From Gemmatimonadales bacterium (lineage in GTDB: Bacteria > Gemmatimonadota > Gemmatimonadetes > Gemmatimonadales > GWC2-71-9), in NCBI GenBank assembly GCA_041612035.1, contig JBFILX010000003.1, positions 1-32,591 of the forward strand: a stretch of DNA of 32,591 bases, written 5' to 3'. The notes beneath the pieces were generated by a model. That model was not told where the DNA came from. It saw only the letters and a list, made by a program, of their open reading frames with translations, and made no database searches. The position numbers and the translations under genes were made by a program. Positions 1,926-29,638 of this stretch are shown here, piece by piece (the first letter of the stretch is position 1; each line of letters opens with the position of its first letter).

Positions 1926-2269
1926 CGGCGTTCGGGCCGGTCCTGGACGGCCTCACCCGGGTGGCCGGGGTCCGCAGCGCCCTCCTGGTCTCCGCCGACG
2001 ACGGGCTCCCCGTGGCGGACGCCACCATGGAGGGGGTGGACATCGAGGCGGCCGCCGCGCTGGCGGCCAGCCTGGTGGCGCGGCTGGGGCGGGCCCTGGG
2101 GGCCGCCGGGCACGGGCGGCCCACCCTGGTGCACCTGGAGGCGGCGGCGGGCTCGGTCATGGCGCTCCCCGCCGGCGACGAACTGCTGCTCGTGGCGGTG
2201 TGCGATCCCGACGCCAACCTGGGACTGCTCCGGCTGGTGCTGCGCGACTCCGTGGAGCGGCTGACCTGA
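1922..2269 (+). CDS. Roadblock/LC7 domain protein (MglB/MglC-like)
   Basis: 3' part of track ORF 1001..2269. GTG at 1922 overlaps the upstream stop, with GGAG about 8 nt upstream. Motif: 'VAGVRSALLVSADDGLPV...AAAALAASL...LLLVAVCDPDANLGLLRL'. Confidence 0.85.
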   Translation: MTAFGPVLDGLTRVAGVRSALLVSADDGLPVADATMEGVDIEAAAALAASLVARLGRALGAAGHGRPTLVHLEAAAGSVMALPAGDELLLVAVCDPDANLGLLRLVLRDSVERLT

Positions 2270-2730
2270 TGCGCAGCGTCGAGCCGTGGGTGGCGGCCCC
2301 CCTGGCCGAGTTCCTTCGCGAGTCCTCGGCCGACCTGGTGCTGCTGATGACGTCGTCGGGGCAGGTGGTGGCGCAGCACGGGTTCGCCCGGTCGCTGGAT
2401 GTCATGGCGGCCGCCTCCCTGGGCGCGGCGATCGTCGCCTCCACCGGTGAGCTGGCGCGGGTGATGGGGGTCCAGGCGTTCGGCCACGTGGTACATCAGG
2501 GCCGGAGCCGGAGCGTGCTGCTGGCGCCCTTCGCGATGCCGCGCGGAACCTGGATCGGGCTGATCGTCTTCGACCGCGAGACCACGGTGGGACTGGTCCA
2601 GCTGTTCTTCCGCGAGCTGGGGCGCGCCCTGTCGGTCGCGGCGCCCGCGACCCCGCCGTCACGGGTGGTGCTGGCCGAGCAGTTCGAGGCGGAGCTCAAT
2701 GCCAGCCTGCGCACCCTGTTCGGGCGCTGA
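2269..2730 (+). CDS. mglB: MglB-like Roadblock protein (putative GAP of MglA)
   Basis: ATG in a TGATG overlap, directly upstream of mglA. Motif 'LVLLMTSSGQVVAQHG...AASLGAA...LIVFDRETTVGLV' plus a C-terminal helix 'FEAELNASLRTLFGR'. Confidence 0.75.
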   Translation: MRSVEPWVAAPLAEFLRESSADLVLLMTSSGQVVAQHGFARSLDVMAAASLGAAIVASTGELARVMGVQAFGHVVHQGRSRSVLLAPFAMPRGTWIGLIVFDRETTVGLVQLFFRELGRALSVAAPATPPSRVVLAEQFEAELNASLRTLFGR

Positions 2731-2735
2731 CGCCG

Positions 2736-3338
2736 ATGCCGCTCGTCAACTTCACGACCCGCGAGATCACCTGCAAGCTGGTGTACTACGGCCCCGGCCG
2801 GTCCGGCAAGACGACCAACCTGCAGTACATCCACGGGCGGGTGCCCGACCAGCGGCGGGGCGCCATGGTCTCCCTGGCCACCCACGGCGACCGGACCCTG
2901 TTCTTCGATTTCCTCCCGCTCGACCTGGGATCCATCTCGGGATTCACCACGCGCTTCCAGCTGTATACCGTTCCGGGCCAGGTGTACTATGCCGCCACCC
3001 GCCGGCTGGTGCTCCAGGGGGCGGACGGGGTGGTGTTCGTGGCGGACAGCCAGGCGCGCCGGTTCGACGAGAACGTCGAGAGCCTGCGCGACCTGCACGA
3101 GAACCTGCGGCAGCAGGGCGTGGAGGCCTCGACGTTCCCGATGGTGTTCCAGTACAACAAGCAGGACCTGCCGACCGACCTCATCATGCCCCCGTCCGCG
3201 CTGGACCACGCGCTCAACTTCCGGGGGCGGCCCTCCCAGCCGGCCGATGCCCTGCGGGGGAGCGGCGTGTTCGAGACGCTCAAGGCGGCGGCGGGCCTGG
3301 TCCTGGAGCGGCTGGCCCAGCCGGCGGCGGAGTCATGA
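2736..3338 (+). CDS. mglA: MglA-family small GTPase
   Basis: 'KLVYYGPGRSGKTTNL' (G1), 'DRTLFFDFLP', 'LYTVPGQVYY' (G3), 'DGVVFVADSQ' and 'NKQD' (G4) closely match Myxococcus/Thermus MglA. Confidence 0.95.
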   Translation: MPLVNFTTREITCKLVYYGPGRSGKTTNLQYIHGRVPDQRRGAMVSLATHGDRTLFFDFLPLDLGSISGFTTRFQLYTVPGQVYYAATRRLVLQGADGVVFVADSQARRFDENVESLRDLHENLRQQGVEASTFPMVFQYNKQDLPTDLIMPPSALDHALNFRGRPSQPADALRGSGVFETLKAAAGLVLERLAQPAAES

Positions 3339-5317
3339 GCTTCCAGCCCGATCCGGCCCGGACCTTCGTCAGCTTCGTGGTCGGCGCCCCGAACCAGCTC
3401 GCGGCCGCGGCGGCGCGGGCCCTGGCCGACCTGGCCCGGCCGCCCTTCAATCCGCTCTACCTGCTGGGCGAGCCGGGCCAGGGGAAGACCCACCTGCTCC
3501 AGGCCATCGGGGCCCAGCGGCTCACCGTCGCCCCCGGCACCACGGTCGAGCTGGTGACCTGGGGGGGGCTGAGCGAGCAGCTGCTCGAGGCGGCGGCCTC
3601 CGGTCGGTCGGATGTCCTGCGTCCCTGTCGGGAGGCGGGCCTGCTTCTGCTCGACGACGTGGACCGGATGACCCAGTACGCGGTGGCGCGCCGGCCGATC
3701 CTCGACCTGCTCGACGCCCGGCTCACGCGGGGCCTCGCCACCGCCATGGCGGGCCGGCGTCCGCCGGGGGCCCTGCTGGGTCCGGAAGACCCCGCCGTCC
3801 GCCTGCTGGGCGCCGGGCTGGTGGTGGAGATCGGGCCGCCCGACGCCGCGCTGCGGGAGGAGATCGTCCGTTGGCACCTCGGCGCGGCGGGGGTTTCGTT
3901 CGCCCAGGCCGTGGTGGACGAGGTGGTCGGGCTCCCGCTGGGATCGGCGGCGGACCTGGTGGCCGCGGTCCAGCGTCTCATTGCCTTCCAGACCGTGTCG
4001 CCCACCCCGCTCGCCCCGTCGCAGGCGCGGGTGCTGATCACGGGGGTGCTGGAGGAGCCGTTCCCGGTGGCCGTCGCCGCGGGGGTCCCGGCGGCCGACG
4101 CGGCGGCGCCCCCGGGGCCGGCACCCGCCCGCGGGCTCGACGAGGGCGACGAATTCGGCTCGTTCCTGTCCGAGGTGGTGGCCGGGATCAGCCACCAGGT
4201 GGACCGGTGGCGGACCGAGGTGGGCGATGCGGTGCTCCGCTTCGAGGCGGCGGGGTACCACACCGCGCGGCTCGAGGCGCTGCTCGACCAGGAGCTCCCC
4301 GCGCAGCCGGAACAGGTGCTGGCGCGCTACGAGGCGGACGTGGCGCGGCTGGAGCAGATCGCGGCGGAAGTGCGGGCCGTGGCCCCGGACCTGGGCGGCC
4401 ACGAGGTGCTCCGCGACCCGGACCGCGTGGAGGAGGCGGAGCAGCTGCTCGAGGAGGCCAGGACCCGCGACCTCTCTCCTCACCGTCCCGATCCCGGCCT
4501 GCGCCTGGACGACCTGATCGAGGGACCGTCCAACCGGGCCGCCCTGGACGCCGTCCGCGCCCTGGTGGCCCGGGCGCCCGGCGCGACCGCGCTCTGCCTG
4601 GTGGGGGACCCCGGCACCGGGAAGTCCCACCTGCTCCACGGCCTGGGCAACGCCCTCGCGGAGGCGGGGACCGCCGGCGTGGTGTGCGTGTCGGCGCAGA
4701 CCCTGGCCCGGGAGATCGAGGACGAAGCGCGCGCGGGGCGCCTGGGCGACTGGCGGCGGCGTCACCGGTGGATCGGCGCGCTCCTGGTGGACGACGTGCA
4801 CCTCCTCGGGGAGCGGCGGGAGGCGCAGGAGGTGCTGCTGGAGCTGGTGGACCAGCTCGGACGCGACGGGCGGCCGGTCGCGGTCACGGCGGCCATCCCG
4901 GTGGCCGAGCTGGAGGCGGTGGAGCCCCAGCTGCTCGCCCGGCTGGCCAGCGGCGCCGTGGTCGACCTCCCGCGGCCCGACCGCGAGGTGCGGCTGGGGC
5001 TGGTGCTGCGGTGGCTCGACCAGCTGCCCGCGCGCCCCGCCTCCGACCTGGCCGCGTACATCGCCGGGCGACCCGCGGGGTCGGTGCGCGCCGTGCAGGT
5101 CATGCTGCAGCGGGTGCTCCGGCAGGCGGCCGCGGCGGGGAGCGCGCCGGACGTGGCCCTGGCGCGGCAGGTGCTGGAGGGGCCGCCCGGCGCGGGGCGC
5201 CTGCTCGGGGCCCGACCCGGCGTGCTGGGCCCCTCGGTCGCGGGTCCCCGGCTGCGGGAGAAGCTCATCGAGCGCTGGCCCGAGGCGCGCGATCTCCTGA
5301 CGGAGGAACTGTCCTGA
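3335..5317 (+). CDS. Tandem DnaA/Hda-like AAA+ ATPase (two ATPase modules, no DnaA domain I or IV)
   Basis: ATGA overlap with the mglA stop. Module 1: 'TFVSFVVGAPNQLA...FNPLYLLGEPGQGKTHLLQAIG...LLLLDDV'. Module 2: 'GPSNRAA...GDPGTGKSHLL...LLVDDVH...LLARLASG...PDREVR...SVRAV'. Confidence 0.85.
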   Translation: MSFQPDPARTFVSFVVGAPNQLAAAAARALADLARPPFNPLYLLGEPGQGKTHLLQAIGAQRLTVAPGTTVELVTWGGLSEQLLEAAASGRSDVLRPCREAGLLLLDDVDRMTQYAVARRPILDLLDARLTRGLATAMAGRRPPGALLGPEDPAVRLLGAGLVVEIGPPDAALREEIVRWHLGAAGVSFAQAVVDEVVGLPLGSAADLVAAVQRLIAFQTVSPTPLAPSQARVLITGVLEEPFPVAVAAGVPAADAAAPPGPAPARGLDEGDEFGSFLSEVVAGISHQVDRWRTEVGDAVLRFEAAGYHTARLEALLDQELPAQPEQVLARYEADVARLEQIAAEVRAVAPDLGGHEVLRDPDRVEEAEQLLEEARTRDLSPHRPDPGLRLDDLIEGPSNRAALDAVRALVARAPGATALCLVGDPGTGKSHLLHGLGNALAEAGTAGVVCVSAQTLAREIEDEARAGRLGDWRRRHRWIGALLVDDVHLLGERREAQEVLLELVDQLGRDGRPVAVTAAIPVAELEAVEPQLLARLASGAVVDLPRPDREVRLGLVLRWLDQLPARPASDLAAYIAGRPAGSVRAVQVMLQRVLRQAAAAGSAPDVALARQVLEGPPGAGRLLGARPGVLGPSVAGPRLREKLIERWPEARDLLTEELS

Positions 5318-6939
5318 TGGCGATCAAGGGCAGTCTCCAGGAAGCGGGTCTCCCCGACGTGATCCAGATGCTCTACCTGGGCCGACGCACCGGGTGCCTG
5401 TCGGTCTCCGAGCGGGGAAGCCTCGCCAGCCTCTACTTCGAGGACGGCTGGGTCACGGACGCCGCGATGGTGAACCGGCCCGACCGGCTGGGGGACATCC
5501 TGGTGCGCTCCGGCCGCCTGACGCCGGCGCAGCTGGAAGAGGCCATCGCCATGCAGGCCCGGCAGCAGGGGCGCCGGCTCGGGGCGGTCCTGGTGGAGCT
5601 GGGCCATCTCCAGCCCGACGACATCCGTCGGGCGGTCCGGCGGCAGGTGGAGGAGGCGGTGTACGCCATGTTCGGCTGGCGCCGGGGGTCCTTCTCGTTC
5701 GAGCCGGGGGTGCGCACCCCGAACCCCGACAGCGTCCGCCTGGCCCCGGAGGCGCTCCTGCTGGAAGGCGCCCGGCGGGTGGACGAGTGGGCCCTGATCC
5801 AGTCGAAGATCCCGTCGTTCGACCTGGTGTTCGCCGTGGACCGGAGCCGGGCCGCCACCGCCGACCCCGAGCTGTCGGACCTGCAGCGCCGGCTGCTGGA
5901 TCTGCTGGACGGCGTGCGGGACGTGCGCACCCTGGTGGACGAGGCGGGGTCCACCGAATTCGACACCTGCCGCGCCCTGTACGGCCTGGTCACCGCGTGC
6001 CTGGCGCAGCGGGTCGGCACCTCGCCGCCCGCCGCGGGCCGGCCGCGCGAGGCGCAGATCGAGGAGCACCGGAACCTCGGGGTCGCCTTCTACCGGACGG
6101 GCATGCTGGAGGAATCGCTGCGCGAGTTCCGCCGGGTCATGGAGCTTCGTCCGGCGGAGGGGGCCGCGCCCTTCCACCTCGGGCTCATCGCGGCCCGACA
6201 GGGTCGCTGGGCGGACGCCTCCTATTTCTTCCGCCGGGCGGCGGACCGCGCGGGACCCCGGGCCGCCATCCTTCACAACCTGGGGGTCGCGCTCGCCCTG
6301 GCCGGTGAACCCGACCAGGCGGAGACCACGCTGCGGGAAGCCACGAGCCGGGCCCCCGACGGGCCCCGCACGCTCATCGCGTGGGCCATCCTCGCCCTCG
6401 ACCGCGGCGACGTCCACCCCGCGCTGGTCCGGCTGGAGCGGGCGCGTGGCCTCCTCGATCCGGAGATCCCGGCGCTCTGGTACTGGGCCGCGGTGCGGGC
6501 CCTGGCCGGCGTGGGCGACCTCGACCGCGCGCTGGAGGTGGCCACCGAGGGGGTGGATCGCTGGCCCGGGGTGCCGGCGCTCCTCAACAACCAGGCGGTC
6601 CTGCTGGAGGCGGCGGGCGAGCTGCCCGGGGCCGAAGCCGCGCTGCAGCAGGCGCTGGAACGGGATCCCGGGCTGCCCGAGGTCTCCAAGAATCTCGGGG
6701 ACGTGCTCTATCGGCTGGGCCGGTACGACGAGGCATGGACCGCCTTCCAGCGCGCGCTGCGGCTGCGGCCCGAGGGTGGCGACGACCTGCACTTCAAGCT
6801 CGGCAACCTGGCCCTGCGCCGGGGTGATGCGGAGGACGCACGATCCCACTGGCGCCGGGCGGTCGAGCTCAATCCCCGGCACCAGCTGGCCCGCGCCAAC
6901 CTGCAGAGCGCCGTGGGGAGCGATGCCGCTCTCCGATGA
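5317..6939 (+). CDS. DUF4388 (PATAN-like) protein with tandem MshEN-like motif and multiple TPRs
   Basis: ATG in a TGATG overlap, with GGAGG upstream. 'IKGSLQEAGLPDVIQMLYLGRRTGCLSV', RLG repeats, 'LLLEGARRVDEW' and a long TPR array (NLGVAFY, HLGLIA, NLGVAL, NLGDVLY, KLGNLA). Confidence 0.88.
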   Translation: MAIKGSLQEAGLPDVIQMLYLGRRTGCLSVSERGSLASLYFEDGWVTDAAMVNRPDRLGDILVRSGRLTPAQLEEAIAMQARQQGRRLGAVLVELGHLQPDDIRRAVRRQVEEAVYAMFGWRRGSFSFEPGVRTPNPDSVRLAPEALLLEGARRVDEWALIQSKIPSFDLVFAVDRSRAATADPELSDLQRRLLDLLDGVRDVRTLVDEAGSTEFDTCRALYGLVTACLAQRVGTSPPAAGRPREAQIEEHRNLGVAFYRTGMLEESLREFRRVMELRPAEGAAPFHLGLIAARQGRWADASYFFRRAADRAGPRAAILHNLGVALALAGEPDQAETTLREATSRAPDGPRTLIAWAILALDRGDVHPALVRLERARGLLDPEIPALWYWAAVRALAGVGDLDRALEVATEGVDRWPGVPALLNNQAVLLEAAGELPGAEAALQQALERDPGLPEVSKNLGDVLYRLGRYDEAWTAFQRALRLRPEGGDDLHFKLGNLALRRGDAEDARSHWRRAVELNPRHQLARANLQSAVGSDAALR

Positions 6940-7744
6940 CCCCGGCTTCGCGCTGGTGCTCCAGCGACTGGCCGGCCGCGGGCTCCCGCCGCTCGACGCC
7001 TACAAGGACAACTGCCTCCGCCGCCGGCTGCAGGTCCGCCTGCGCGCCTGCGGGGCCCGGACCCTGACCGAGTACGCCCAGGTGCTCGAGACGACACCGG
7101 ACGAGGTGGAGCGGCTCCGGGAGGCGCTCACCATCAACGTGACCGGGTTCTTCCGCAACCCGGAGACCTGGGAGCGTCTGCGGTCGGAACTGCCCGCGCT
7201 GGTGTCCGGCCCCTGGCGCCAGATCGCCGCGTGGAGTGCCGGGTGTGCCTCGGGGGAGGAGGCGTGGACGCTGGCCGCCCTCCTCGCCACGGTCATGGGA
7301 GAGGGCGGCATCCGCGTCTCCAGCGCCCGCCTGCGCGTGGACGCGACCGACATCGATACGGCCTGCCTGGCCACCACCGCGGCGGGCGTCTATCCGGATC
7401 AGGCGTTCACCGACGCCCCGGCCGCCATGCGGGAGCGCTGGACCGTCCCCGACCGGGACGGGCGCCGGATGGTTCCCCAGCTCCTCCCCGTGGTCCGCGC
7501 GCTGGCGCACGACATGACCCGCGACCATCCCCCCGACCCGCCCTACCACCTGATCGTGTGCCGGAACGTGATGATCTACTTCACCCGGCCCGTGCAGGAG
7601 GCCCTGTTCGCGCGGTTCGCTGGCGCCCTGCGGCCCGGCGGGCTCCTGGTGCTCGGCAAGGTCGAGTCGGTGTCCGCCCCGGCCCGGGACCGGTTCGCGG
7701 TGGTGGACCACCGCGAGCGGATCTTCCGGCGAACCGATGACTGA
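6923..7744 (+). CDS. cheR: Chemotaxis protein-glutamate methyltransferase CheR
   Basis: 'YKDNCLRRRL', 'LTINVTGFFRNP', 'WSAGCASGEE', 'ATDID' and 'LIVCRNVMIYF'. ATG at 6923 follows GGGGAG. Confidence 0.93.
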   Translation: MPLSDDPGFALVLQRLAGRGLPPLDAYKDNCLRRRLQVRLRACGARTLTEYAQVLETTPDEVERLREALTINVTGFFRNPETWERLRSELPALVSGPWRQIAAWSAGCASGEEAWTLAALLATVMGEGGIRVSSARLRVDATDIDTACLATTAAGVYPDQAFTDAPAAMRERWTVPDRDGRRMVPQLLPVVRALAHDMTRDHPPDPPYHLIVCRNVMIYFTRPVQEALFARFAGALRPGGLLVLGKVESVSAPARDRFAVVDHRERIFRRTDD

Positions 7745-8222
7745 GGAACTGGTGGTCGTCCCGATGGGCGGGCTCGAGGTCCGCGCCGCCCCCGCGGTGC
7801 TGACCGCGATCGGGCTGGGCAGCTGCGTCGCGATCATGATGCTCGATCCCGGGACCCGGACCGGGGGGCTGGCCCACGTGCTCCTCCCGGTGCCGGGCGA
7901 CGCCGGGGCGGTTCCGCCCGGGCGCTACGCGGCCAGTGCGGCTCCGCTGCTCTTCCGGCAGCTGGTGGCGACCGGGGCCGACCCCGCACGGTTCCAGGCC
8001 TGGCTGGTCGGCGGCGCCACCATGTTCGCGGCGCTCATGGCGCCGGACACGGTCTCCATCGGGGACCGCAACGTGACGGCGGCGCGGGAAGCCCTCGACC
8101 GGCTCGGGGTTCCGATCGCGGGGGAGGCGCTCGGCGGGACCCGGGGCCGCACCGTGACGCTGGACCTGGCCCGGGGGCGGGTCGAGGTCCGGTCGGTGGG
8201 ACAGGGGGTCCATGTCCTCTGA
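7737..8222 (+). CDS. cheD: Chemoreceptor glutamine deamidase CheD
   Basis: 'GLGSCVA' (catalytic Cys), 'GGLAHVLLP' (His), 'GGATMF', 'IGDRN' and 'GGTRGRTV'. Confidence 0.93.
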
Positions 8223-9294
8223 GACGGCCTCGGTCCTGGTGGTGGACGACAGCGCCTTCTTCCGGCGGCTGCTGTCGGACCTCATCGCGGGCTCGGGGCG
8301 ATACCGCGTGGTGGGCAGCGCCCGCCACGGCATGGACGCGCTCCGCAAGGTGCATCAGTTCGAGCCCGATCTCGTGACGATGGACCTGGAGATGCCCGAG
8401 CTCGACGGGCTCGGCGCCATCGGGTACATCATGTCCGAGGCCCCCCGCCCGGTGGTGGTGGTGAGCGCGTACGTGGGGGCGGGGACGGTCGGCGCGATCC
8501 GGGCCCTCGAGCTGGGCGCGGTGGAACTGGTGCCCAAGGAGGAGGATCGCAGTCCCGCGTCGCTCGAGCGGCTGCGCGACCGGCTGCTCGCCGCGCTGGA
8601 CGCGGCCCGGTCGGCCGACCTCAGCCGGGTGTCCGTCCTCGCCCGTCCCCAGCATCGCCCGCCGCCGGCCCTGGTGCACGCCCTCCCGGGCCGGGCCCGG
8701 TTCTGCGTGGCGGTCGCGTCGTCCACCGGGGGCCCCCGCGCCCTGGCCGACCTGGTGCCGCAGTTGCCCGCCGGCCGGCGGGCCGGGGTGGTCATCGCCC
8801 AGCACATGCCGCCCGGCTTCACCCGCAGTCTCGCCGAACGGCTGGCGGGGATGAGCCGGCTCCAGGTGGTGGAAGGGGAGGACCGGGCGCCGCTGCTGCA
8901 GGACACGGCCTACGTCGCCCCGGGCGACTGGCACATGGCCGTCGAGACCGGACCCGACGGCCCCCGCCTGCGGCTGGGCCAGTCCCCCGCGGTCTGGGGC
9001 GTGCGGCCGGCGGCCGACCCGCTCTTCCGGTCGGTCGCCACCGCTTACGGTGACCGGGCCATCGGGGTGGTACTGACGGGGCTCGGCAAGGACGGTGCGC
9101 AGGGGCTCCGGGCCATCCGCGACGCGGGCGGGTACGGGATCGCCCAGGACCGCGAGACGTCGGTCATCTACGGCATGCCGGCCGCGGCCGCGGCGGCCGG
9201 CGGGGCGGAGGCGATCCTGCCCCTCGGCGCCATCGCGGACGCGGTCGCCGCCCGGCTCGAACGGCTGGCGCTGACCCGGGCCGAGACGACGTGA
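8212..9294 (+). CDS. cheB: Chemotaxis response regulator protein-glutamate methylesterase CheB
   Basis: REC domain (VVDDS, TMDLEMP, VSA, PK) plus esterase triad SSTGG / QHMP / LTGLGKDG, and 'SVIYGMP'. Confidence 0.95.
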
Positions 9295-9917
9295 GCGAGG
9301 TCCCCCGGCAGGACCGGCTCGGGGCCTCCACCTTCATGGAGAAGGGGTGGAGCCTCATCGCCTCGGGCGACCCGGAACGGGCCATCGCGGCGCTGCAGGA
9401 GGCCCGGCGCCTGGCGCCCGACGACGTGGACGCCGCGGCCCTGCTGGGCTGGGCCGAGACCCTGACCGGGCGCCACGACGACGCGCTGCAGACCCTGACC
9501 GGGGTCCTGGCGCGCGATCCGGCGCATGCCATGGCGCGGGTGAATCTCGGGTACATCTGCCTGCGGCGGGGCGTCTTCGGCGAGGCCATCGAGCACCTCA
9601 CCCGGGTGATCCACGAACAACGCGACCGCAAGGCGGTGCTGTACGCCCACCACTACCTTGGCCTGGTGTACCTGGAACGGGGGATGGCGGACGATGCCGC
9701 GGGGTTCCTGCGCGAGGCGGTGGCCCTGGGGCCCAACCTGATCGAGGCCCGGTACGACCTCGGGCGCGCGCTCGCGCTGGCCGGCCGGCCGGCGGAGGCG
9801 CTCGCGGTCTGGCGGGAGGGCGCGGCGGTCGGGGCCTATTCGCCGTGGGCGCTGCGGTGCGTCGAGGCGGTCGCGCGGGTCGAGGCCGGAGAGGAGCCGC
9901 CATCCTCGCCGGGCTGA
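9291..9917 (+). CDS. Tetratricopeptide repeat protein
   Basis: GTGA overlap with cheB and repeated TPR helices (ALLGWAE, NLGYIC, YLGLVY, DLGRAL). Confidence 0.85.
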
Positions 9918-10816
9918 TCCTGGCCCTCCAGTCGGTCTTCGCGCAGGTGCCGGCGGGGTTTCAGGTCGCGGAAGTCGGCGAGGTGACCGTGATCGCGCCG
10001 GCCAGCCGGATGGCCCTGGGCCTGTCGCTGGCCGACCTGGCCTCCCGGCCGATGGCGTTCCCCGGCCTCGAGCCGCGCCCGGTGGGCCGGATGCGCCTGA
10101 TCGTGCTGGAGGGAAACGGCGCCCGGCAGGTGGTGCGCGGCAGCGTGCCCGAGTGGGGGGTGGGGCTCGCCCTGCCGGGCTCGCGCACGATCATCATCCG
10201 GACCGACGCGCCCGATCCGGCGGCCGTCCTGCGGCACGAGCTGGCCCACCTGGCGCTGCACGACGCCATCCGGAGCCGGGTGCCGCTCTGGTTCGACGAG
10301 GGGTACGCCGTGGTGGCCGCGGGAGAGGTGGCGAGGTTCCGCGGTCTCCAGCTCAACCTGGCGGTGGCCCGGGGCCGGGTGGGGGGCTTCGACGCGCTGG
10401 ACCGGATGCTCCGGCAGGACGCGCTCCGGGCCGGGATCGCCTACGCGCTGGCCGGGTCGGCGGTGCTGCACCTGCTCCGGCTCCAGCCCTCCGGCTCACT
10501 GGCCCCCCTGATCGACCGGCTGGCCGCGGGCGAGCCGTTCGCCGAAGCCCTGGAGCGGACGACGGGGTATACCACCGGGACCTTCGAACGGTCCTGGCGC
10601 ACCGATCTCCGGCGGCGGTACAATGTCTTCCTCTGGCTCGGCGCGGGCGGCGGGTGGGCCGTGCTGGCGGCGGCCGTGGCGGGGATCGCGTGGTGGCGCC
10701 GCCGGCGGGACCGGCCCCGGCGGGCCGCGCTGGACGAGGGGTGGGTGGCGGAAGGGTGGCAGGCGGAGGTGGGGGAGGGCGGCGATCCGCTTGACCCGGG
10801 GCATTCGGCTGGGTAG
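9857..10816 (+). CDS. Exported, membrane-anchored zinc metallopeptidase-like protein (peptidase MA / gluzincin)
   Basis: 3' part of track ORF 9347..10816. The start is uncertain; GTG 9857 gives a basic plus hydrophobic signal-like N-terminus. 'RHELAH...PLWFDEGYA' (HExxH...E), then a C-terminal TM segment followed by RRRRDR. Confidence 0.72.
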   Translation: MRRGGRAGRGRRGAAILAGLILALQSVFAQVPAGFQVAEVGEVTVIAPASRMALGLSLADLASRPMAFPGLEPRPVGRMRLIVLEGNGARQVVRGSVPEWGVGLALPGSRTIIIRTDAPDPAAVLRHELAHLALHDAIRSRVPLWFDEGYAVVAAGEVARFRGLQLNLAVARGRVGGFDALDRMLRQDALRAGIAYALAGSAVLHLLRLQPSGSLAPLIDRLAAGEPFAEALERTTGYTTGTFERSWRTDLRRRYNVFLWLGAGGGWAVLAAAVAGIAWWRRRRDRPRRAALDEGWVAEGWQAEVGEGGDPLDPGHSAG

Positions 10817-10819
10817 CAT
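10791..10819 (+). promoter_or_regulatory. Putative sigma70-type promoter
   Basis: TTGACC (10791-10796), 17-bp spacer, TAGCAT (10814-10819), 8 nt before ATG 10828. Confidence 0.6.
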
Positions 10820-10827
10820 CCAACTCT

Positions 10828-11019
10828 ATGCCCCAAACCGAGATGGCCCCCGGCGGCCGGCGTCACGCGCTGGGCCGCAGGAACCTCGTCGTGCTGGCTG
10901 CGGCGGTCGCCACGCTCGTCGCGGGGTATGTGCTGCTGGGGGCCGGAAGCACGAGCCTCGCGGCGGTGCTGCTGGTCGTGGGGTATTGTGTGCTGTTCCC
11001 CCTGGCCATCGCGCTCTGA
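10828..11019 (+). CDS. Small two-TM membrane protein (DUF3098-like)
   Basis: 63 aa: 'RRNLVVLAAAVATLVAGYVLL...SLAAVLLVVGYCVLFPLAI'. The family resemblance is from memory only. Confidence 0.65.
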   Translation: MPQTEMAPGGRRHALGRRNLVVLAAAVATLVAGYVLLGAGSTSLAAVLLVVGYCVLFPLAIAL

Positions 11020-11082
11020 GGGCGTGCCCGTCGGTCCCCCTTCGGCGTCTCCCATCAGGTGGAGTGGCCGGCGGGAGCGGTC

Positions 11083-11157
11083 GGGCGAATAGCTCAGCTG
11101 GTCCAGAGCGCCTGCCTTACACGCAGGAAGTCGGGGGTTCGAATCCCTCTTCGCCCA
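11083..11157 (+). tRNA. tRNA-Val (anticodon TAC), CCA not encoded
   Basis: Acceptor stem GGGCGAA/TTCGCCC, D-arm GCTC..GAGC, anticodon arm CCTGC-CT TAC AC-GCAGG and T-loop GTTCGAATC. Confidence 0.97.
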
Positions 11158-11225
11158 TGTGGTCCGCACCGGTGGCCATCCGGGTCACCCATGGCGGAAC
11201 GTTCGAGGTCCGGAGGCCGTCAGGA

Positions 11226-12932
11226 ATGCGTCTGATTCGTTTCGTGTGTCTCGCCTTGTTTGCGGTGGTCGGCGTGGTGCCGGCCCAGGCGCAGCTGCGT
11301 GCCAACCGGCCGCCGCCCCGCACCCAGAACCTGCCGCGGCTCCTCGTGGCCACGCCGTATCCCGCCAACACCGGCGACAGCGCCGCCTCGGTGCGGGTGG
11401 GCGACGGGATGCGCAAGCGGATGGACGACATCGCGGGCCGCTGGTTCAACACGGTCACCCGCGAGCAGATGAACGACGCCCTGCTCCAGTACGCCTATCC
11501 GCCCGACGCGGTGCTGCCGCCCCCGGTGGCCCGCACCCTGGCCACCCAGCTGCAGGCGCGGTTCCTGGTCAGCTCGACCCTGGCGCGGTCGGAGGGCGGC
11601 CGCTACACGGTGCAGGTCCGAGCCGCGGGGCTCAACGACAAGGCGGGGTACACGATCTCGCTGGTGCAGGCCCCGGGGCAGAGTCTCGATGACTTCGGCA
11701 AGGCGTCGGCCGACGCCTTGCAGGGCGCGTTCCGGGCCTACGAGGACGCACGGAAGTGCTGGGACCAGCAGACCACGCGCCCGCGGGACGCGATCGAGTC
11801 GGCCCAGAAGGCGCTGCGCGACCAGCCGGGTCACGGACTGGCCCACTACTGCCTGGGCGAGATCGCCGCCGCGCAGGGGCAGCCGCGCGACTCCCTGATC
11901 AAGCACTACAGCGCCGCCGCCGCGGGCGACCCGCAGAGCCTCGAGGCCTGGAGCCAGCTGGCGATCCAGTATCAGCAGGCCGGCGACAGCGCGAGCACCG
12001 TCAAGGTGTTCCAGGAGATGCTCCGGGTCTCCCCCACCAACCAGCCCCTCCGGGAGCAGGCGTTCCGCCTGTTCCTGCAGTACGGCCGCCCCGAGGCGGC
12101 CCGGCAGGTGGCGGAAGAGGGTCTGGAGATCGATCCGACCAACGCCGACCTGTGGGACCTGAAGAGCAACGCCTGCCTCTTCCTCGAGGACTTCACCTGC
12201 GCCGTGGACGCCCTGGAGCAGGTCCACGAGGTCGACCCGGCCAAGGCCGACTCGGCGTTCTTCAACAAGATCAGCGTGGCCGCCTCCCAGCAGCCGGACA
12301 CCGCGCGGCTGCTCCGGTGGGCGCGGCAGGGGGTCCAGAAGTACCCGGACAACCCGACCCTGCTGGCCCACCTGGCCACCGCCTACGGCTTCGCGGGGCC
12401 GCTGGACAGCGCGATGGTCGCGACGACCCGGCTCATGGCGGTGGACTCCTCCGACCTGCGCCCGGTCCTGAAGACGATCCAGACCCTGGCCACCGCCAAC
12501 CGGGTGACCGAAGTCGAGCCGCTGGGCCGGTACGTGGAGCGGCTGGGGGACGAGGACGACAAGCAGACCTACGCCGTCATCCTGATCAACGGGGCGCTGC
12601 CGCTCCTGCAGCAGGAAGGACAGGACCTGGAGGGGGCCGCGCGCATGGCGCGGAAGGCCGTCTCCCTGTCGGTCTCGGGCGGACGGGTGGCCGCGAACGC
12701 GAACTACGTGCTGGGCCTCGCGACCGCGCTCCAGCTGCCGCCCCGCGACCAGCCGATCATGGACCAGAAGTCCTGTCCGCTGGCGCAGGAGTCGAAGGCC
12801 CTGCTCGACGAGGCGGCGGCCGCGCTGACCGCCGGGCAGACGGTGCGCCCCGACGCGGTCGCCCAGTACATGCGGATCGTGGACGGCTTCCGGCCCCGGG
12901 TGGAGTCGCAGCTCCGCGCGTTCTGCCGGTAA
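11226..12932 (+). CDS. Exported TPR-repeat protein with N-terminal alpha/beta domain
   Basis: ATG at 11226 with GGAGG upstream. Sec-type signal 'MRLIRFVCLALFAVVGVVPAQA' followed by many TPR-like helices. Confidence 0.8.
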   Translation: MRLIRFVCLALFAVVGVVPAQAQLRANRPPPRTQNLPRLLVATPYPANTGDSAASVRVGDGMRKRMDDIAGRWFNTVTREQMNDALLQYAYPPDAVLPPPVARTLATQLQARFLVSSTLARSEGGRYTVQVRAAGLNDKAGYTISLVQAPGQSLDDFGKASADALQGAFRAYEDARKCWDQQTTRPRDAIESAQKALRDQPGHGLAHYCLGEIAAAQGQPRDSLIKHYSAAAAGDPQSLEAWSQLAIQYQQAGDSASTVKVFQEMLRVSPTNQPLREQAFRLFLQYGRPEAARQVAEEGLEIDPTNADLWDLKSNACLFLEDFTCAVDALEQVHEVDPAKADSAFFNKISVAASQQPDTARLLRWARQGVQKYPDNPTLLAHLATAYGFAGPLDSAMVATTRLMAVDSSDLRPVLKTIQTLATANRVTEVEPLGRYVERLGDEDDKQTYAVILINGALPLLQQEGQDLEGAARMARKAVSLSVSGGRVAANANYVLGLATALQLPPRDQPIMDQKSCPLAQESKALLDEAAAALTAGQTVRPDAVAQYMRIVDGFRPRVESQLRAFCR

Positions 12933-13073: not shown

Positions 13074-13112
13074 GACACCCCGCCCGGTTCGCCGGGCGGG
13101 GTGTCCGTCTTT
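13074..13112 (+). terminator. Perfect 14-bp hairpin with UUCG loop; putative intrinsic terminator or attenuator after tRNA-Asp
   Basis: GACACCCCGCCCGG-TTCG-CCGGGCGGGGTGTC, followed by CGTCTTT (weak U-tract). Confidence 0.65.
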
Positions 13113-14031
13113 GATGACCGGGGCGCCCCCCGCCGGCTGGCACGCCCCGGTGCTCGTGGGGGAGGTGCTGGCGGCCGCCGGCCGTCCGGCCCGTGCCGTG
13201 GACGCGACGCTGGGCGACGGAGGTCACGCCGCCGCGCTGGTCGCCGCCGGCGCGGAGGTGCTCGGGATCGACCGCGACCCGGAGGCGCTGGTCCGGGCGG
13301 GGGCCCGGCTGGCCGGAGCGCCGGTGCGCCTGGTGCCGGGTGCCTTCGACGACCCGGCGGTGCTGGAACAGGTGGCCGCGTTCCGGCCCGACTTCGCCCT
13401 GCTCGACCTGGGGGTCTCCTCCCGGCAGCTGGACGACGACGCCCTGGGCTTCAGCTTCCGGCCCGGGACCCTGCTGGACATGCGGATGAGCCGGGCCGGC
13501 CCCACCGCCGCCGACCTGCTCAACCGGATGGACGCGGCGGACCTGGCCCGGATGTTCGCCGACCTGGCCGACGAGCGCCGGGCCCGGCGCATGGCCGGGG
13601 AGGTGGTGCGTCGCCGGGCCCGTGAGCCGTTCCGGACCAGCGACGACCTGGTCAACGCGATCCGGGCCGTGCTCGGGCCGTCGAGTGGACCCTCGGACTT
13701 CGCCCGGCTCTTCCAGGCGGTCCGGATCACCGTGAACGATGAGCTCGACCGCCTCGAGCGGGCCCTCCCGGCCTTTCGCGACGCCCTGGAGCCGGGCGGC
13801 ACCCTGGCCGTGATCAGTTATCATTCGGGAGAGGACCGGCTGGTCAAGCGGGCCTTCCGCGAGTGGGCGCGTCGCTGCGTCTGCCCCCCGGCGTTCCCGG
13901 TCTGTCGCTGTCGGGGCCGACCGCTGGGGTCGCTGCCGACGCGTCGGGCGATCACCCCCTCGCCGGAGGAGTCCGCCGCGAACCCGCGGGCCCGCAGCGC
14001 TCGCCTTCGACTCTTTCGCACCGCGACATGA
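13111..14031 (+). CDS. rsmH: 16S rRNA m4C1402 methyltransferase RsmH (MraW)
   Basis: 'HAPVL', 'VDATLGDGGHA', 'DLGVSSRQLD', 'LDMRM', 'FQAVRITVNDEL', 'ISYHSGEDRLVK' and 'NPRARSARLR'. The start may be ATG 13114. Confidence 0.95.
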   Translation: MMTGAPPAGWHAPVLVGEVLAAAGRPARAVDATLGDGGHAAALVAAGAEVLGIDRDPEALVRAGARLAGAPVRLVPGAFDDPAVLEQVAAFRPDFALLDLGVSSRQLDDDALGFSFRPGTLLDMRMSRAGPTAADLLNRMDAADLARMFADLADERRARRMAGEVVRRRAREPFRTSDDLVNAIRAVLGPSSGPSDFARLFQAVRITVNDELDRLERALPAFRDALEPGGTLAVISYHSGEDRLVKRAFREWARRCVCPPAFPVCRCRGRPLGSLPTRRAITPSPEESAANPRARSARLRLFRTAT

Positions 14032-14324
14032 AGCTCCGGGGACGGTTCTGGCTCGGGTTCTGGCTGGTCTTCTTCCTGGTGGTCTCCCTCACCGTGGTGG
14101 CCCGCCAGCGGTCGGCGCTGGCCACGGCGGCGACCCTGCGCGCCCTGCGGGCGGAACGGCTTGCCCTGGAGGCCACCCGGGCCGAGTACGAGCGCCGGAT
14201 CCGGGAAGGCCAGAGCCGGAAGGTGCTGATCCCGCTCGCCGAGACCCGGCTGCAGCTCCGGCTGCCAACCGACAGTGAGTACGTGATCCTCCGGCTGCGT
14301 CCCCCTACCGACCCCAGGGACTGA
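14028..14324 (+). CDS. ftsL: Cell division protein FtsL-like
   Basis: ATGA overlap with rsmH; short TM plus coiled coil; located between rsmH and ftsI. Confidence 0.75.
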   Translation: MKLRGRFWLGFWLVFFLVVSLTVVARQRSALATAATLRALRAERLALEATRAEYERRIREGQSRKVLIPLAETRLQLRLPTDSEYVILRLRPPTDPRD

Positions 14325-16303
14325 TGGCGAACCCGGTCACCCGCATCTCCTTCCTCAACGTGGTGCTGCTCCTGGGCCTGGCCGGGATCGTGGGCCGGGC
14401 GGTACAGCTCCAGGTCGTGGAGGGCGACCGCTGGCGGGCCCAGGCGGAGCGGACCCGGACGGAGACCCGGAGCCTGCCGGCCCGGCGGGGCACCCTGTAC
14501 GACCGGCAGGGGTCGCCCCTGGCGATCTCGCAGGAGAAGTACCGGGTGGGGGTCGCGCCCTGGGAGGTGCCGGCCCGCCAGGCCGATACGGTGGCCCGGC
14601 TCCTGGTGCGGGACCTCGACTTCCCGCGGGCCAAGGTCCGCGAAGCGTTCCGCGCGGTGCGGCAGGGGGAGCACTACCTCTACCGGTACGCGCCGGCCAC
14701 GGCCAGCCAGGTCGAGGCGCTGCGTCGCTACCGCGGGATCCGGCTGGAGCCGGTGTACCTGCGGACCTACCCGTCGGGGCCGCTGGCCCGGGACCTGATC
14801 GGCGCCCTGGAAGCCGACTCGGGCCGGGGCCGTTCCGGCATCGAGCGGGCGATGGACCACCTGCTGGCCGGGGTGCCGGGGCTCGCCGGGTTCCTCCGCG
14901 ACCGGCGCGGCGTGCTGTACGAGTCGCCCGACCGGCTGGTGCGGTCCCCCGTGGCGGGCCACGACGTCCACCTGACGCTCGACGCGGAGCTGCAGGGGAT
15001 CGCCGAGGCGGCGCTGGCGCAGACCTTGGACGAGCAGCAGGCCGACGCGGGGGACGTGGTGCTGATCGAGCCGGCCACGGGCGAGGTGCTGGCCCTGGCC
15101 TCGCAGGTGCGACGCCCGGCGGGCGAGCGGCGCGTGGGGGCCTGGACCCCGTCGGAGCCGGGGTCCACCATCAAGCCCTTCGCCGCGGCCGGGCTCCTCG
15201 CGCTGGGCCGGGCGGCGGCGTCGGACTCGGTGCACGGGGAGAACGGCGTCTGGCAGGTGGATCAGCGCCGCCGCCCGATCCGGGACACCCACCCGCGGGC
15301 CGGCTGGCTCACGCTGGCGCAGGCGATCCAGGTGTCGAGCAACGTCGCCACCACCAAGTTCACCCTCCGGCTGCGCCCCGAGGAGCACTACGACGTGCTG
15401 CGGGACTTCGGCTTCGGGACGCCGACCGGGCTGGAACTTCCCTTCGAGTCGGCCGGCATCCTCAAACGGCCCCACGCCTGGAACCCGGGCAACACCCAGC
15501 CCAGCATGGCCCAGGGCTACGAGCTGGAGGTCACCCCGCTGCAGCTCGCGGCGGCGTACGCGGCGCTGGCCAACGACGGCCTGCTGCCGTCACTCACTCT
15601 GGTGCGGGAGATCCGCAATCCGGAAGGCCGGGTCGTCTACCGGCACCGGCCGGCGCCGGTACGCCGGGTGGTGAGCGCCGGCGTGGCGGCCCAGGTGCGC
15701 GGCTTCCTGCGGGACGCCGCCTCGGCCGGCGGCGGAACCGGGAGCCGGGCCCAGCTCGCCACCTACCGGGTGATCGGGAAGACCGGGACCGCCAAGAACG
15801 TGGTGGGCGGGACCTACGCCTCGGGGCAGTACACGGCCTCCTTCGCCGGGATGTTCCCGGAGGAGGACCCCCAGCTGGTCTTCGTCGTCCGCATCGTGAA
15901 TCCGCAGGCGGGCGAGTACTACGGGGGACTGGTGGCGGCGCCGCTCACCCGGCGCATGCTGCAGAACGCCCTCGCCGCCCGCCGCTCGGGGATCGACCGC
16001 AGCCGGCTGGCGCTCCGGTCCGCGACCGAGTCGACGGTGCCCGCCCCGGCCCCGGTCCACGACGCGGCCCCCATCGTGATGCCGGTGACCCCCGCCTCGG
16101 CCGGGGCGCGGCCGCCGGCCCCCATGGTGGCCGTGCCCGACGTGATCGGGCTCCCCGTCCGCCGGGCGGCGCTGCAGCTCCACCAGCGCGGTCTCCGCGT
16201 GCGCATGGACGGCCGCGGCACGGTGCGCAGCATGTCCCCGGCCGCGGGCGACTCGGCGCGGGCGGGCAGCGCGATCCGGCTGGTGGCGGGGGCCGGTGGC
16301 TGA
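14324..16303 (+). CDS. ftsI: Class B penicillin-binding protein FtsI with C-terminal PASTA domain
   Basis: 'RRGTLYDRQG', 'EPGSTIKP' (SxxK), 'SSN', 'KTGT', and PASTA-like 'VPDVIGLPVRRA'. Confidence 0.93.
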   Translation: MANPVTRISFLNVVLLLGLAGIVGRAVQLQVVEGDRWRAQAERTRTETRSLPARRGTLYDRQGSPLAISQEKYRVGVAPWEVPARQADTVARLLVRDLDFPRAKVREAFRAVRQGEHYLYRYAPATASQVEALRRYRGIRLEPVYLRTYPSGPLARDLIGALEADSGRGRSGIERAMDHLLAGVPGLAGFLRDRRGVLYESPDRLVRSPVAGHDVHLTLDAELQGIAEAALAQTLDEQQADAGDVVLIEPATGEVLALASQVRRPAGERRVGAWTPSEPGSTIKPFAAAGLLALGRAAASDSVHGENGVWQVDQRRRPIRDTHPRAGWLTLAQAIQVSSNVATTKFTLRLRPEEHYDVLRDFGFGTPTGLELPFESAGILKRPHAWNPGNTQPSMAQGYELEVTPLQLAAAYAALANDGLLPSLTLVREIRNPEGRVVYRHRPAPVRRVVSAGVAAQVRGFLRDAASAGGGTGSRAQLATYRVIGKTGTAKNVVGGTYASGQYTASFAGMFPEEDPQLVFVVRIVNPQAGEYYGGLVAAPLTRRMLQNALAARRSGIDRSRLALRSATESTVPAPAPVHDAAPIVMPVTPASAGARPPAPMVAVPDVIGLPVRRAALQLHQRGLRVRMDGRGTVRSMSPAAGDSARAGSAIRLVAGAGG

Positions 16304-23832: not shown

Positions 23833-23835
23833 GCG

Positions 23836-23863
23836 TTGCCATGTCCGTGCAGTTGCTTAGATT
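23836..23863 (+). promoter_or_regulatory. Putative internal sigma70-type promoter upstream of murC
   Basis: TTGCCA (23836-23841), 16-bp spacer, TAGATT (23858-23863), in a relatively AT-rich intergenic gap. Confidence 0.5.
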
Positions 23864-23875
23864 AGGTCCGTCGCC

Positions 23876-25249: not shown

Positions 25250-25914
25250 GGTGGCGGACGGGGCTCGTCATCGCGGCGCTCGGGGTGGCCGCGGCCCTGG
25301 TGGCGCCGAGCCTGCTCCGGCGGGTGTCGTTCTTCGAGGTGCGCCGGGTGGAACTCCTGGGCGCCCGATACCTGACGGGGGAAGACGTCGTGGAGGCGCT
25401 GGGGCTGGCCCCCGATCGCAGTCTGTTCGACCGGCTGGACGGACTGGACGCCAAGGTGGCCGCGATCCCGGGGGTCCGGGCGGCCCGGGTGTCGCGCCGG
25501 TGGCCGGGGACCCTGGTGGTCCGGGTGACCGAGGCCGACCCGGTGGCCCTTGCCCCCCGCGACGGGGTGCTGGTGCTGATGGACGACGGCGGCCGGCTCC
25601 TGCCGTTCGACCCGACGCGGGCCCCGGCCGACCTGCCGGTGGCCCAGGCCGATTCGGCGGTGGCCCGGGTGCTGGGACGGGTGCGGGAGGCGGAACCGTC
25701 GCTGTACGCGCTGGTGCAGTCCGCCCGGCGGGTGGCCGGCGACGTGGTGCTGGAGTCGGGGCGCGGGCGGTACCTGCTGCGGGCCGACGCGCCGGTGCCG
25801 GCAATTCGGGCCCTGGCGGCGGTGCTCCGGGACCTCGCGACCAGGGCGTGGACCTTTCAGGAACTCGATGCGCGATTCACCGACCGGGTGTTCGTGCGGG
25901 GCATGAAGACGTGA
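25246..25914 (+). CDS. ftsQ: Cell division protein FtsQ/DivIB
   Basis: N-terminal TM, POTRA-like segment ('GARYLT...VSRRWPGTLVVRVTE') and C-terminal 'LDARF'; located before ftsA. Confidence 0.88.
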   Translation: MRWRTGLVIAALGVAAALVAPSLLRRVSFFEVRRVELLGARYLTGEDVVEALGLAPDRSLFDRLDGLDAKVAAIPGVRAARVSRRWPGTLVVRVTEADPVALAPRDGVLVLMDDGGRLLPFDPTRAPADLPVAQADSAVARVLGRVREAEPSLYALVQSARRVAGDVVLESGRGRYLLRADAPVPAIRALAAVLRDLATRAWTFQELDARFTDRVFVRGMKT

Positions 25915-27161: not shown

Positions 27162-27201
27162 TCTCCCCTCCGGGGGGTGGCCCCATGCCAAGGGTGGCGC
27201 G

Positions 27202-29597: not shown

Positions 29598-29638
29598 CCG
29601 CCCGCGGGGCCGCCAGGCCGGCTCCGGCACCACCCTCC

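Follow-up and report, generated by a model that had tools for sequence, protein, structure and literature searches.

A tandem DnaA-type AAA+ protein without domain IV, encoded beside mglA in a Gemmatimonadales polarity cluster

What is a gene with two copies of the ATPase domain of the replication initiator DnaA doing among polarity and chemotaxis genes? The question is raised by the window analyzed here, a stretch of 32,591 nt from a Gemmatimonadales bacterium (contig JBFILX010000003.1 of assembly GCA_041612035.1), which comes from a metagenome-assembled genome (MAG) of 259 contigs that is 95.7% complete. The gene directly follows an mglA gene and encodes a protein, P0001, with two DnaA-type AAA+ modules. 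Our results suggest that the ATPase engine of DnaA has been re-used here for polarity or motility signaling and not for the start of replication, and the best reading is that P0001 is neither a replication initiator nor an Hda. On balance, we lean toward P0001 being a lineage-specific, dispensable accessory of the MglA-type polarity and type IV pilus module of Gemmatimonadales, acting as an ATP-gated switch or scaffold.

We find a single gene, as a first-pass annotation made from the DNA letters had proposed. The frame has no internal stops, the G+C content at third codon positions (GC3) is 0.92-0.98 in each 198-nt block, and this signal ends after position 5315. The G+C content of the window is 75%, and long antisense open reading frames (ORFs) are listed in it; since third-position G+C supports the + frame, these antisense ORFs are not the gene. 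At its end, the TGA stop shares TGATG (5315-5319) with the ATG of the next gene. At its start, the ATG shares ATGA (3335-3338) with the stop of mglA. This overlap agrees with the earlier claim that P0001 is translationally coupled to mglA.

The two DnaA domain III-like modules described in the first-pass annotation were recovered by Pfam, which places Bac_DnaA (PF00308) in two stretches of P0001 (E = 1.5e-39; 71.7 bits each in the whole-genome scan). Bac_DnaA_C (PF08299) is not among the matches listed, which cover 25 of 29 Pfam families at E ≤ 0.1, and this agrees with the earlier statement that domains I and IV are lacking. The Walker A motifs GEPGQGKT (residues 45-52, from nucleotide 3467) and GDPGTGKS (residues 424-431, from nucleotide 4604) lie where they had been placed, and the Walker B motifs LLLLDD and LLVDD are both present. 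Between the modules there is indeed an Ala/Pro linker (10 Ala and 7 Pro among the 31 residues 241-271), the length of which varies among aligned relatives, and an acidic helical region (residues 272-385, net charge -13, compared with -3 in each of modules 1 and 2). The chain ends in a tail with a conserved motif, in which K643, W648, and P649 occur in 69/69 relatives and E642 in 68/69. The first-pass annotation had not mentioned this tail, nor that the region between the modules is a distinct conserved domain, nor the one-module and gene-less variants described below.

The modules differ in their catalytic residues. Module 2 has the full AAA+ catalytic set, consisting of the Walker A lysine K430, the Walker B acidic pair D486/D487, the box-VII arginine finger R536, and the sensor-II arginine R585, each found in all 69 relatives. 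From the invariance of this whole set, we infer that module 2 is a working ATPase. In module 1, K51 and D107 are likewise found in 69/69 relatives; position 157, corresponding to the arginine finger, is Arg in 38 and Leu in 16 of the 69, and the sensor-II position 206 is Arg in 62 and Ala in P0001 only. Judged by these residues, module 1 of P0001 looks like an ATP-binding but otherwise degenerate module and, because its arginine-finger and sensor-II arginines are lost, would be a regulatory or structural partner.

An AlphaFold2 model built from the 69 relatives (mean predicted local distance difference test [pLDDT] score 89.9) divides the protein into module 1 (residues 1-240), a disordered linker (244-270), a helical domain (273-383), module 2 (~390-615), and a disordered tail (622-660). 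Foldseek aligns a P0001 module with structures of DnaA domain III (2z4r, 8bv3), at a root mean square deviation (rmsd) of 2.1-2.4 Å and a target TM-score of 0.90. Many p97-type matches were also returned; these are nominal, since their TM-scores are 0.23-0.34 and their rmsd values 19-25 Å. In the model, DSSP assigns two helices between strands E71-75 and E103-107 of module 1 and two between E449-453 and E482-486 of module 2. An extra helical insertion between beta-2 and beta-3 is the initiator-specific motif of the initiator clade of AAA+ proteins (DnaA/DnaC/Orc), and both predicted modules carry it.

P0001 is not the DnaA of its genome. There is a canonical dnaA on another contig (C82), a 463-aa ORF that scores 227.6 bits for PF00308 and 93.5 bits for PF08299, the latter being the sole PF08299 match of the genome; a search of 31 genomes of the class found a canonical dnaA in each. 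The best NCBIfam match of P0001 is the DnaA model TIGR00362 (219.1 bits, below the cut-off of 343.9), and the Hda model TIGR03420 gives 117.5 bits, again below its cut-off (194.8). Hda proteins are ~230-250 aa long and have an N-terminal beta-clamp-binding motif close to QL[SP]LPL; the pattern QL[SDPKR]L[FPL], searched anywhere in the protein, is found in 0/69 relatives. The missing clamp motif, the Hda score, and an architecture other than a single Hda-sized module all count against the earlier suggestion that P0001 is an Hda-like regulator coupling MglA to replication.

The first-pass annotation had listed three observations that would speak against it: a domain IV, this gene being the only dnaA of the genome, and a fusion absent from homologs. 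None of the three was found: Domain IV is undetected, the separate dnaA exists, and the homologs have two modules. A search of 5.8 billion proteins gave 310 matches, and of the best 120, which are listed, 117 are 642-694 aa long with 94-100% query coverage. All source names among these 120 are DnaA or DnaA/Hda labels, as the forecast of mislabeling had it ("chromosomal replication initiation ATPase DnaA" or "chromosomal replication initiator protein" from JGI, "DnaA/Hda family protein" from NCBI), and the named organisms are Gemmatimonadales or Gemmatimonadota.

In a tree of 108 domain III sequences, a check that had also been proposed, all copies of module 1 form one group (support 99) and all copies of module 2 another (support 100), and the two groups branch in the same way inside. 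Neither is nested among the 66 DnaA sequences (branch support 85). This tree and a second one, described below, were made with a quick method, with support from the Shimodaira-Hasegawa-like approximate likelihood ratio test (SH-aLRT) only and with no Hda, DnaC, or Orc outgroup. The two modules share a mean identity of 30.2%; compared with Gemmatimonadota DnaA, the mean is 36.2% for module 1 and 31.7% for module 2, so that module 2 is roughly equidistant from module 1 and DnaA. In slow-evolving relatives, the identity of module 1 to domain III of Gemmatimonadota DnaA reaches 50.9%. For P0001, comparison with domain III of the DnaA in its own genome gives only 27.2% and 26.6% for the two modules.

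The second line of evidence is the company that the gene keeps. All cluster genes from position 19 to ~12932 are on the + strand, and between 1164 and 9294 they are separated by gaps of at most 5 nt or overlap by 1-17 nt. Full-length matches to P0001 were found in 17 of the 80 loci kept from a scan of one genome per species (L005-L021), and all 17 come from MAGs. The order PATAN-TPR, TPR-Roadblock, Roadblock, Roadblock, MglA, P0001-type, PATAN-TPR, CheD, CheB is seen in 17/17 of these loci, as far as their contigs reach. Across them, the window MglA is 47%-78% identical, and the second Roadblock-like protein (2269..2730), present in 17/17, is 41%-70% identical. The upstream PATAN-TPR gene is kept wherever contigs extend that far, and a PATAN-TPR gene follows the P0001-type gene in all 13 loci that reach it. 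Of the first 30 other genomes listed, 29 have a cluster-type mglA as the next gene upstream, in the same orientation; in the remaining one (G148), the two are on separate contigs. The other 63 kept loci match only one module (~230 aa), and the 39 examined are ordinary dnaA genes.

The genome has a second, canonical-looking mglB-mglA pair (contig C39, 11232-12411), beside dnaX-ybaB-recR, with a Roadblock match of 42.2 bits and an MglA of 224 aa that is 50% identical to the window MglA. Because of this separate pair, the mglA of the window is read as a dedicated paralog; two mglA matches are found in most sampled genomes. An in-frame TGA flagged in the second MglA paralogs of seven genomes was the terminal stop codon in the five checked. 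There is an MglA match in 134/134 genomes with the middle domain of P0001, and the middle domain is found in 0/44 genomes with no MglA match; since the genomes are related and not independent, this co-occurrence is a pattern and not a test. Of the earlier proposal that an initiator fold has been co-opted for signaling, gene order, dedicated mglA, and separate dnaA give support, which stops short of proof.

A middle-domain profile matches 134 of 201 sampled genomes of the phylum, including the source genome (the tallies include four unpublished genomes; the counts by GTDB family code that follow leave out the source genome). Matches were found in 94/96 genomes of family f1, 27/38 of f2, 3/3 of f3, 3/4 of f4, 1/1 of f5, 3/3 of f8, and 2/23 of f7, and in 0/32 of f6, f9, f10, f11, and f12 together. 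A one-module short form, consisting of module 1, middle domain, and tail (~330-445 aa), is common. It occurs in locus L019, where the tail motif is retained, and in protein clusters named Longimicrobium sp. and Gemmatimonadota. A second tree (85 rows) places the short-form module together with module 1 (support 97) and keeps module 2 separate. This fits a one-module ancestor in which module 2 would have been inserted later, between middle domain and tail; the direction is merely inferred, because the tree has no outgroup. One genome (G180, locus L121) has two ATPase matches with no middle domain detected.

Out of the 17 full-length loci, 16 are in records named Gemmatimonadota or its orders or families and one is named Acidimicrobiia. 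The latter (L012, CAXMUQ010000073.1, labeled "uncultured Acidimicrobiia bacterium") holds an entire Gemmatimonadota-type cluster, and its tandem gene has the lowest E-value among the kept loci (2e-126, 39% identity), which suggests a binning or labeling error, or a transfer.

How might such a protein act? P0001 would be a cytoplasmic protein with two DnaA-derived AAA+ modules and no origin-binding domain, in which module 2 would be the working ATPase and module 1 would bind ATP as its regulatory or structural partner. In head-to-tail association of DnaA-type modules, the arginine finger of one reaches the ATP of its neighbor, and because of this mode of pairing we propose that the modules of P0001 associate in an ATP-dependent manner, within a chain, between chains, or both, and so build or release a scaffold. 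The helical middle domain and the C-terminal tail, with its "EK.V..WP...DRLIEE" motif, would serve as docking elements. Candidate partners are MglA, which may be made in step with P0001 through the ATGA overlap, and the neighboring TPR or PATAN proteins. The likely output would be control over the sites at which the type IV pilus machinery works, and the flanking Che genes would supply the input. PATAN domains bind PilB1 and PilC in Synechocystis (bioRxiv 10.1101/2021.06.11.447907). The source genome has eight T2SSE-family ATPase matches above the cut-off and two matches to methyl-accepting chemotaxis proteins (MCPs); no flagellin was found in it, at 95.7% completeness.

We also predicted a complex of full-length P0001 (alignment A2) with MglA (alignment A4) and GTP, alongside three controls. 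The complex scores 0.60 (runs 0.60, 0.61, and 0.59), compared with 0.01 for the highest-scoring control; at least 50% of contacts recur between runs, and the partner pLDDT is at least 79. Among benchmark cases, 58 of 80 solved complexes pass the mark, as do 2 of 110 mismatched pairs, and the band at or below 0.60, in which our score falls, holds only 7 of the 80 solved complexes and both mismatches. The prediction is graded as weak support and reports no interface. Given the conserved gene coupling, it raises the odds that P0001 and MglA make direct contact only modestly.

Several observations weigh against a role in the polarity switch. In three of the four middle-domain-negative genomes examined (G036, G114, and G168; loci L118, L119, and L120), mglA is followed directly by PATAN-TPR, with ~230-320 nt between them and no DnaA-like gene. 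P0001 is therefore dispensable in some lineages, and its absence from otherwise intact clusters rules it out as a core component of the switch. The proteins also diverge fast: within the GTDB family, relatives are 34%-45% identical to P0001, compared with 73%-78% for DnaA and mostly 70%-79% for MglA. Such divergence fits an adaptor, and it also fits weak constraint. A complex score of 0.60 lies in a band where most predictions are wrong, except for pairs that were already probable; gene adjacency alone does not demonstrate binding, and any partner of the tail or the middle domain is hypothetical. Finally, because both modules are very DnaA-like in slow-evolving relatives, binding of DNA or of DnaA through an AAA+ surface is conceivable.

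A broader version of our proposal would join all these elements. The DnaA-derived ATP switch would be wired to the Ras-like GTP switch, and head-to-tail, ATP-gated assembly would set where or when MglA-GTP is active, which would make a two-nucleotide polarity oscillator. Through its descent from DnaA, the protein might also report the state of replication or of the cell cycle to the motility apparatus, and ATPases of the DnaA and KaiC types would share the helical unit as a general adaptor. We regard this wider scheme as possible but improbable.

The alternative that survives best keeps P0001 in replication: It would dock on DnaA-ATP through its AAA+ surfaces, with the arginine finger of module 2, and cap the filament or trigger hydrolysis. 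P0001 would then be a brake resembling Hda in DnaA's regulatory inactivation (RIDA), or a modulator resembling HdaB, under the MglA switch, and would couple initiation to polarity or motility. DnaA-related regulators that lack domain IV, Hda/HdaA and HdaB, are indeed known (PMC7049699). The membership of both modules in the DnaA family, TIGR00362 as the top NCBIfam match, the closeness of module 1 to domain III in slow-evolving relatives, and the invariance of R536 are all in keeping with such a role. The absent clamp motif, the Hda score below cut-off, and the low identity of the P0001 modules to their own DnaA are not. DnaA is strongly conserved within the family, and a protein that docks on a conserved surface should itself change little there, which the divergence of P0001 does not suggest. 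In addition, the gene is always inside the mglA/PATAN/Che cluster and never near dnaA or dnaN in the loci examined, and it is absent from 67/201 sampled genomes, while dnaA is in 31/31 of those searched. We therefore consider such a link to replication unlikely.

A second alternative is that P0001 anchors the polarity proteins to DNA, its AAA+ modules binding single- or double-stranded DNA in the absence of domain IV and tethering MglA or Che proteins to the chromosome as a positional scaffold. DnaA holds single-stranded DNA with its initiator-specific motif, and FrzCD of Myxococcus uses the nucleoid as a scaffold. The model of P0001 has the extra beta-2/beta-3 helices (H76-89 and H96-100, H454-466 and H470-477), and after Walker B, a segment "AGK..TQEEL" that resembles DnaA is retained in slow-evolving relatives. 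Yet the protein is acidic overall, in modules and middle domain alike, the Pfam and NCBIfam scans detect no DNA-binding domain, and the candidate DNA-contact positions are not conserved in P0001, so that we judge this reading very unlikely.

That P0001 is an assembly artifact, a fused gene pair, or a decaying and functionless dnaA duplicate might be suggested by the fragmented MAG and by a module 1 that lacks two arginines kept by most relatives, but it is already contradicted, and for practical purposes excluded, by the full-length architecture in 117 of the 120 best matches, a frame that is open in >100 sampled genomes, a coding signal that is even along the whole gene, 32 invariant columns among the 69 relatives (including all catalytic residues of module 2 and the tail motif), and contigs assembled from public runs that bridge 2748-4504 (run X1, possibly the source sample) and 3279-3526 (run X5, from a separate study).

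We regard the middle domain as a candidate for a new family of proteins. It is marked by the motifs DEFxxFL and WR...W/F.GEGY.T.RLE.LL...DPD, and when modeled alone, it folds with a pLDDT of 87.3. It has no match in Pfam and hits 0 NCBIfam families; a Foldseek search of the PDB returned nothing at E ≤ 0.001 (best E 5.5), the ESM Atlas gave no usable match, and the best E of its profile against PDB sequences is 0.095. It thus appears to be a distinct conserved domain, previously undescribed. We built the profile from 17 copies and searched it against 1.84 billion representative proteins, which gave 441 proteins with E ≤ 0.001, of which 71 have E ≤ 1e-30.

Among the 150 of these 441 proteins that are listed, 24 repeat the unit in tandem, in 4-25 copies. 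P0121, with 25 copies in 3090 aa, and P0237, with 18 in 3143 aa, are the largest; P0123 is also among the giant repeat proteins. These metagenomic giants are K/E-rich, and their unit is helical, ~95 aa long, and has the motifs W..EGY...LE and DPD. A Pfam scan of 15 of the 24 multicopy proteins found that P0130, P0162, P0166, and P0216 end in a DnaA domain III (230-236 bits), followed by zinc ribbons in P0162, P0166, and P0216. P0135 has zinc ribbons only, P0150 begins with DUF835, and P0192 and P0231 have weak, subthreshold KaiC matches. One architecture consists of an uncharacterized N-terminal domain, eight repeats, and DnaA domain III with or without zinc ribbons; another joins a KaiC-like domain to repeats. 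A region search with the N-terminal domain recovered four proteins only. If this domain were PATAN, the fusion would mirror the operon, but by hhalign, its similarity to PATAN has a probability of 2.3% (E 0.021) over only 44 columns, and we do not rely on it. Two further DnaA-fused repeat forms were found by region search. Source names are available for DnaA-less forms only: three clusters are named Thermoplasmata or Thermoplasmatota, and one is named Candidatus Wallbacteria.

In the 85-row tree, the ATPase of the repeat-DnaA fusions groups with canonical DnaA and not with module 1 or 2. It therefore seems that the helical unit was joined to a DnaA-type ATPase on more than one occasion. A metagenome scan with P0216 for contigs carrying such fusions found none: all 80 kept loci match only residues ~900-1275, and since the match is confined to the DnaA-type part, where the conserved pattern QEEFFHTF dominates, none of them is a fusion.

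The coordinates of the gene, its parts, and its neighbors are collected in Table 1.

Table 1. The tandem AAA+ gene, its domains, and the surrounding cluster in the window
Feature	Position	Strand	Basis and remarks
PATAN (DUF4388)-TPR protein, 382 aa	19..1167	+	First gene of the contig; Pfam DUF4388 (115.9 bits) and TPR
TPR-Roadblock/LC7 protein, 253 aa	1164..1925	+	Pfam TPR and Robl_LC7 (24.5 bits); syntenic in related loci
Roadblock/LC7 protein (MglB-like), 121 aa	1904..2269	+	Pfam Robl_LC7 (44.1 bits); syntenic
Second Roadblock-like protein, 153 aa	2269..2730	+	Robl_LC7 (16.4 bits, below cut-off 23)
Cluster-type MglA paralog, 200 aa	2736..3338	+	Small-GTPase matches
Tandem DnaA-type AAA+ protein P0001, 660 aa	3335..5317	+	Stop-free single frame
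Module 1, AAA+ base and lid, residues 1-240	3335..4054	+	PF00308 stretch 3359-3826; pLDDT 85-98
Module 1, Walker A	3467-3490
Module 1, Walker B	3641-3658
Module 1, arginine-finger and sensor-II positions			Leu157 and Ala206
Ala/Pro-rich disordered linker, residues 241-271	4055..4147	+	pLDDT <50 for 244-270
Conserved acidic helical middle domain, residues 272-385	4148..4489	+	pLDDT 91-98 in full model
Module 2, fully equipped AAA+, residues 386-618	4490..5188	+	PF00308 stretch 4505-4963; aligns with B. subtilis DnaA domain III
Module 2, Walker A	4604-4627
Module 2, Walker B	4778-4795
Module 2, arginine finger R536	4940-4942
Module 2, sensor II R585	5087-5089
Disordered C-terminal tail, residues 619-660	5189..5314	+	Conserved motif R.REK.V..WP...DRLIEE.R
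PATAN (DUF4388)-TPR protein, 540 aa	5317..6939	+	DUF4388 (129.2 bits) and TPR
CheR methyltransferase	6923..7744	+	Pfam CheR (139.2 bits)
CheD	7737..8222	+	Pfam CheD (86.7 bits); syntenic
CheB, receiver and methylesterase	8212..9294	+	CheB_methylest (203.2 bits), Response_reg (64.8 bits); syntenic
TPR protein	9291..9917	+	Pfam; GC3-based gene call, start approximate
Peptidase_MA_2-like protein	~9845..10816	+	Pfam; GC3-based call, start approximate
Large TPR protein	~10623..12932	+	Pfam; GC3-based call, start approximate
Terminator-like hairpin	13074..13105	+	14-bp stem, 12 G-C pairs, T-rich tail; consensus match only

Past the hairpin, the window holds a complete-looking division/cell-wall (dcw) cluster at 13111-30559, in the order mraW, a 98-aa ORF, an ftsI-like penicillin-binding protein (PBP) gene, murE, murF, mraY, murD, ftsW, murC, ftsQ, ftsA, ftsZ, an M23 peptidase gene, and ftsY. 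In a complete genome (G142; L115 10563-16637), CheW, CheY, CheA, CheC/CheX, and an 894-aa TPR protein are encoded immediately 5′ of the cluster, and no MCP gene was seen in the upstream stretch examined. The contig of the window begins too late to cover the equivalent region. Downstream of the cluster, G142 has unannotated ORFs with sizes and an order resembling the dcw genes. A defense system was also considered for the window and rejected: PADLOC gave only P-loop-local matches of 15.8-20.3 bits for P0001 and none for five neighbors.

Compared with DnaA, each module of P0001 has the domain III AAA+ fold, with Walker A and B motifs and, apart from the two arginines lost from module 1 of P0001, box-VII and sensor-II arginines in DnaA-like sequence contexts, and module 1 starts exactly where domain III of DnaA starts ("LNP..F..FVVG..N" in relatives). 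Unlike DnaA, P0001 has two modules per chain, lacks domains I/II and the helix-turn-helix of domain IV, and is encoded beside mglA instead of dnaN/recF; its score lies below the TIGR00362 cut-off, and it falls outside the 66 DnaA sequences, in a genome with its own dnaA. With Hda, HdaA, and HdaB, it shares a DnaA-family AAA+ core that has no domain IV and, in module 2, keeps the arginine finger. It differs from Hda in its length (~660 aa, with two modules, helical domain, and tail), its place in a polarity cluster, the absent clamp motif, and the Hda score. Type II tandem AAA+ ATPases (p97/Cdc48, NSF, ClpB) likewise have two modules per chain, of which one is often degenerate, but these belong to another AAA+ clade, whereas the modules of P0001 are of the initiator type. 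Initiator-type modules form open spirals and not closed rings.

The cluster itself resembles the MglA-MglB-RomR/RomX and Frz systems of Myxococcus xanthus in encoding an MglA GTPase, Roadblock/LC7 and TPR proteins, and Che proteins together, and the window MglA bears "YTVPGQ" and "GPG..GKT" motifs. It differs in that we found no description of an AAA+ partner of MglA. As in PatA-type regulators, there are PATAN (DUF4388) domains, and PATAN proteins flank the P0001 gene; here the PATAN domain is fused to TPR and not to a receiver, and the link between PATAN and P0001 is drawn from gene order only. In the text passages searched, a 2014 survey of MglA neighborhoods (PMC4316618) mentions PATAN proteins and makes no mention of a DnaA-like gene. 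In the literature that we searched, there was no description of a DnaA-like protein together with MglA, Roadblock, or PATAN.

Databases give the family generic DnaA labels only; we describe it as a DnaA/Hda-family ATPase with a new architecture, a new functional neighborhood, and a domain that had not been described. DnaA-family ATPases are known as initiators, helicase loaders, and regulators of initiation, and to our knowledge the MglA switch has been described with GTPase-activating proteins (GAPs), guanine nucleotide exchange factors (GEFs), and effectors and with no AAA+ component. If our reading is true, the uses of the DnaA fold would be extended to a protein that lost the part for binding DNA, carries the ATPase twice, and came to be encoded in a polarity operon, and P0001 would add a new class of partner to the MglA switch. 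The middle domain spans an unusual range of architectures, from a single copy between bacterial ATPase modules to 4-25 copies in giant proteins, of which some are named Thermoplasmata and one Wallbacteria. Hundreds of P0001-type genes are named "chromosomal replication initiator" in public records, and these names can mislead origin prediction and surveys of gene content in Gemmatimonadota.

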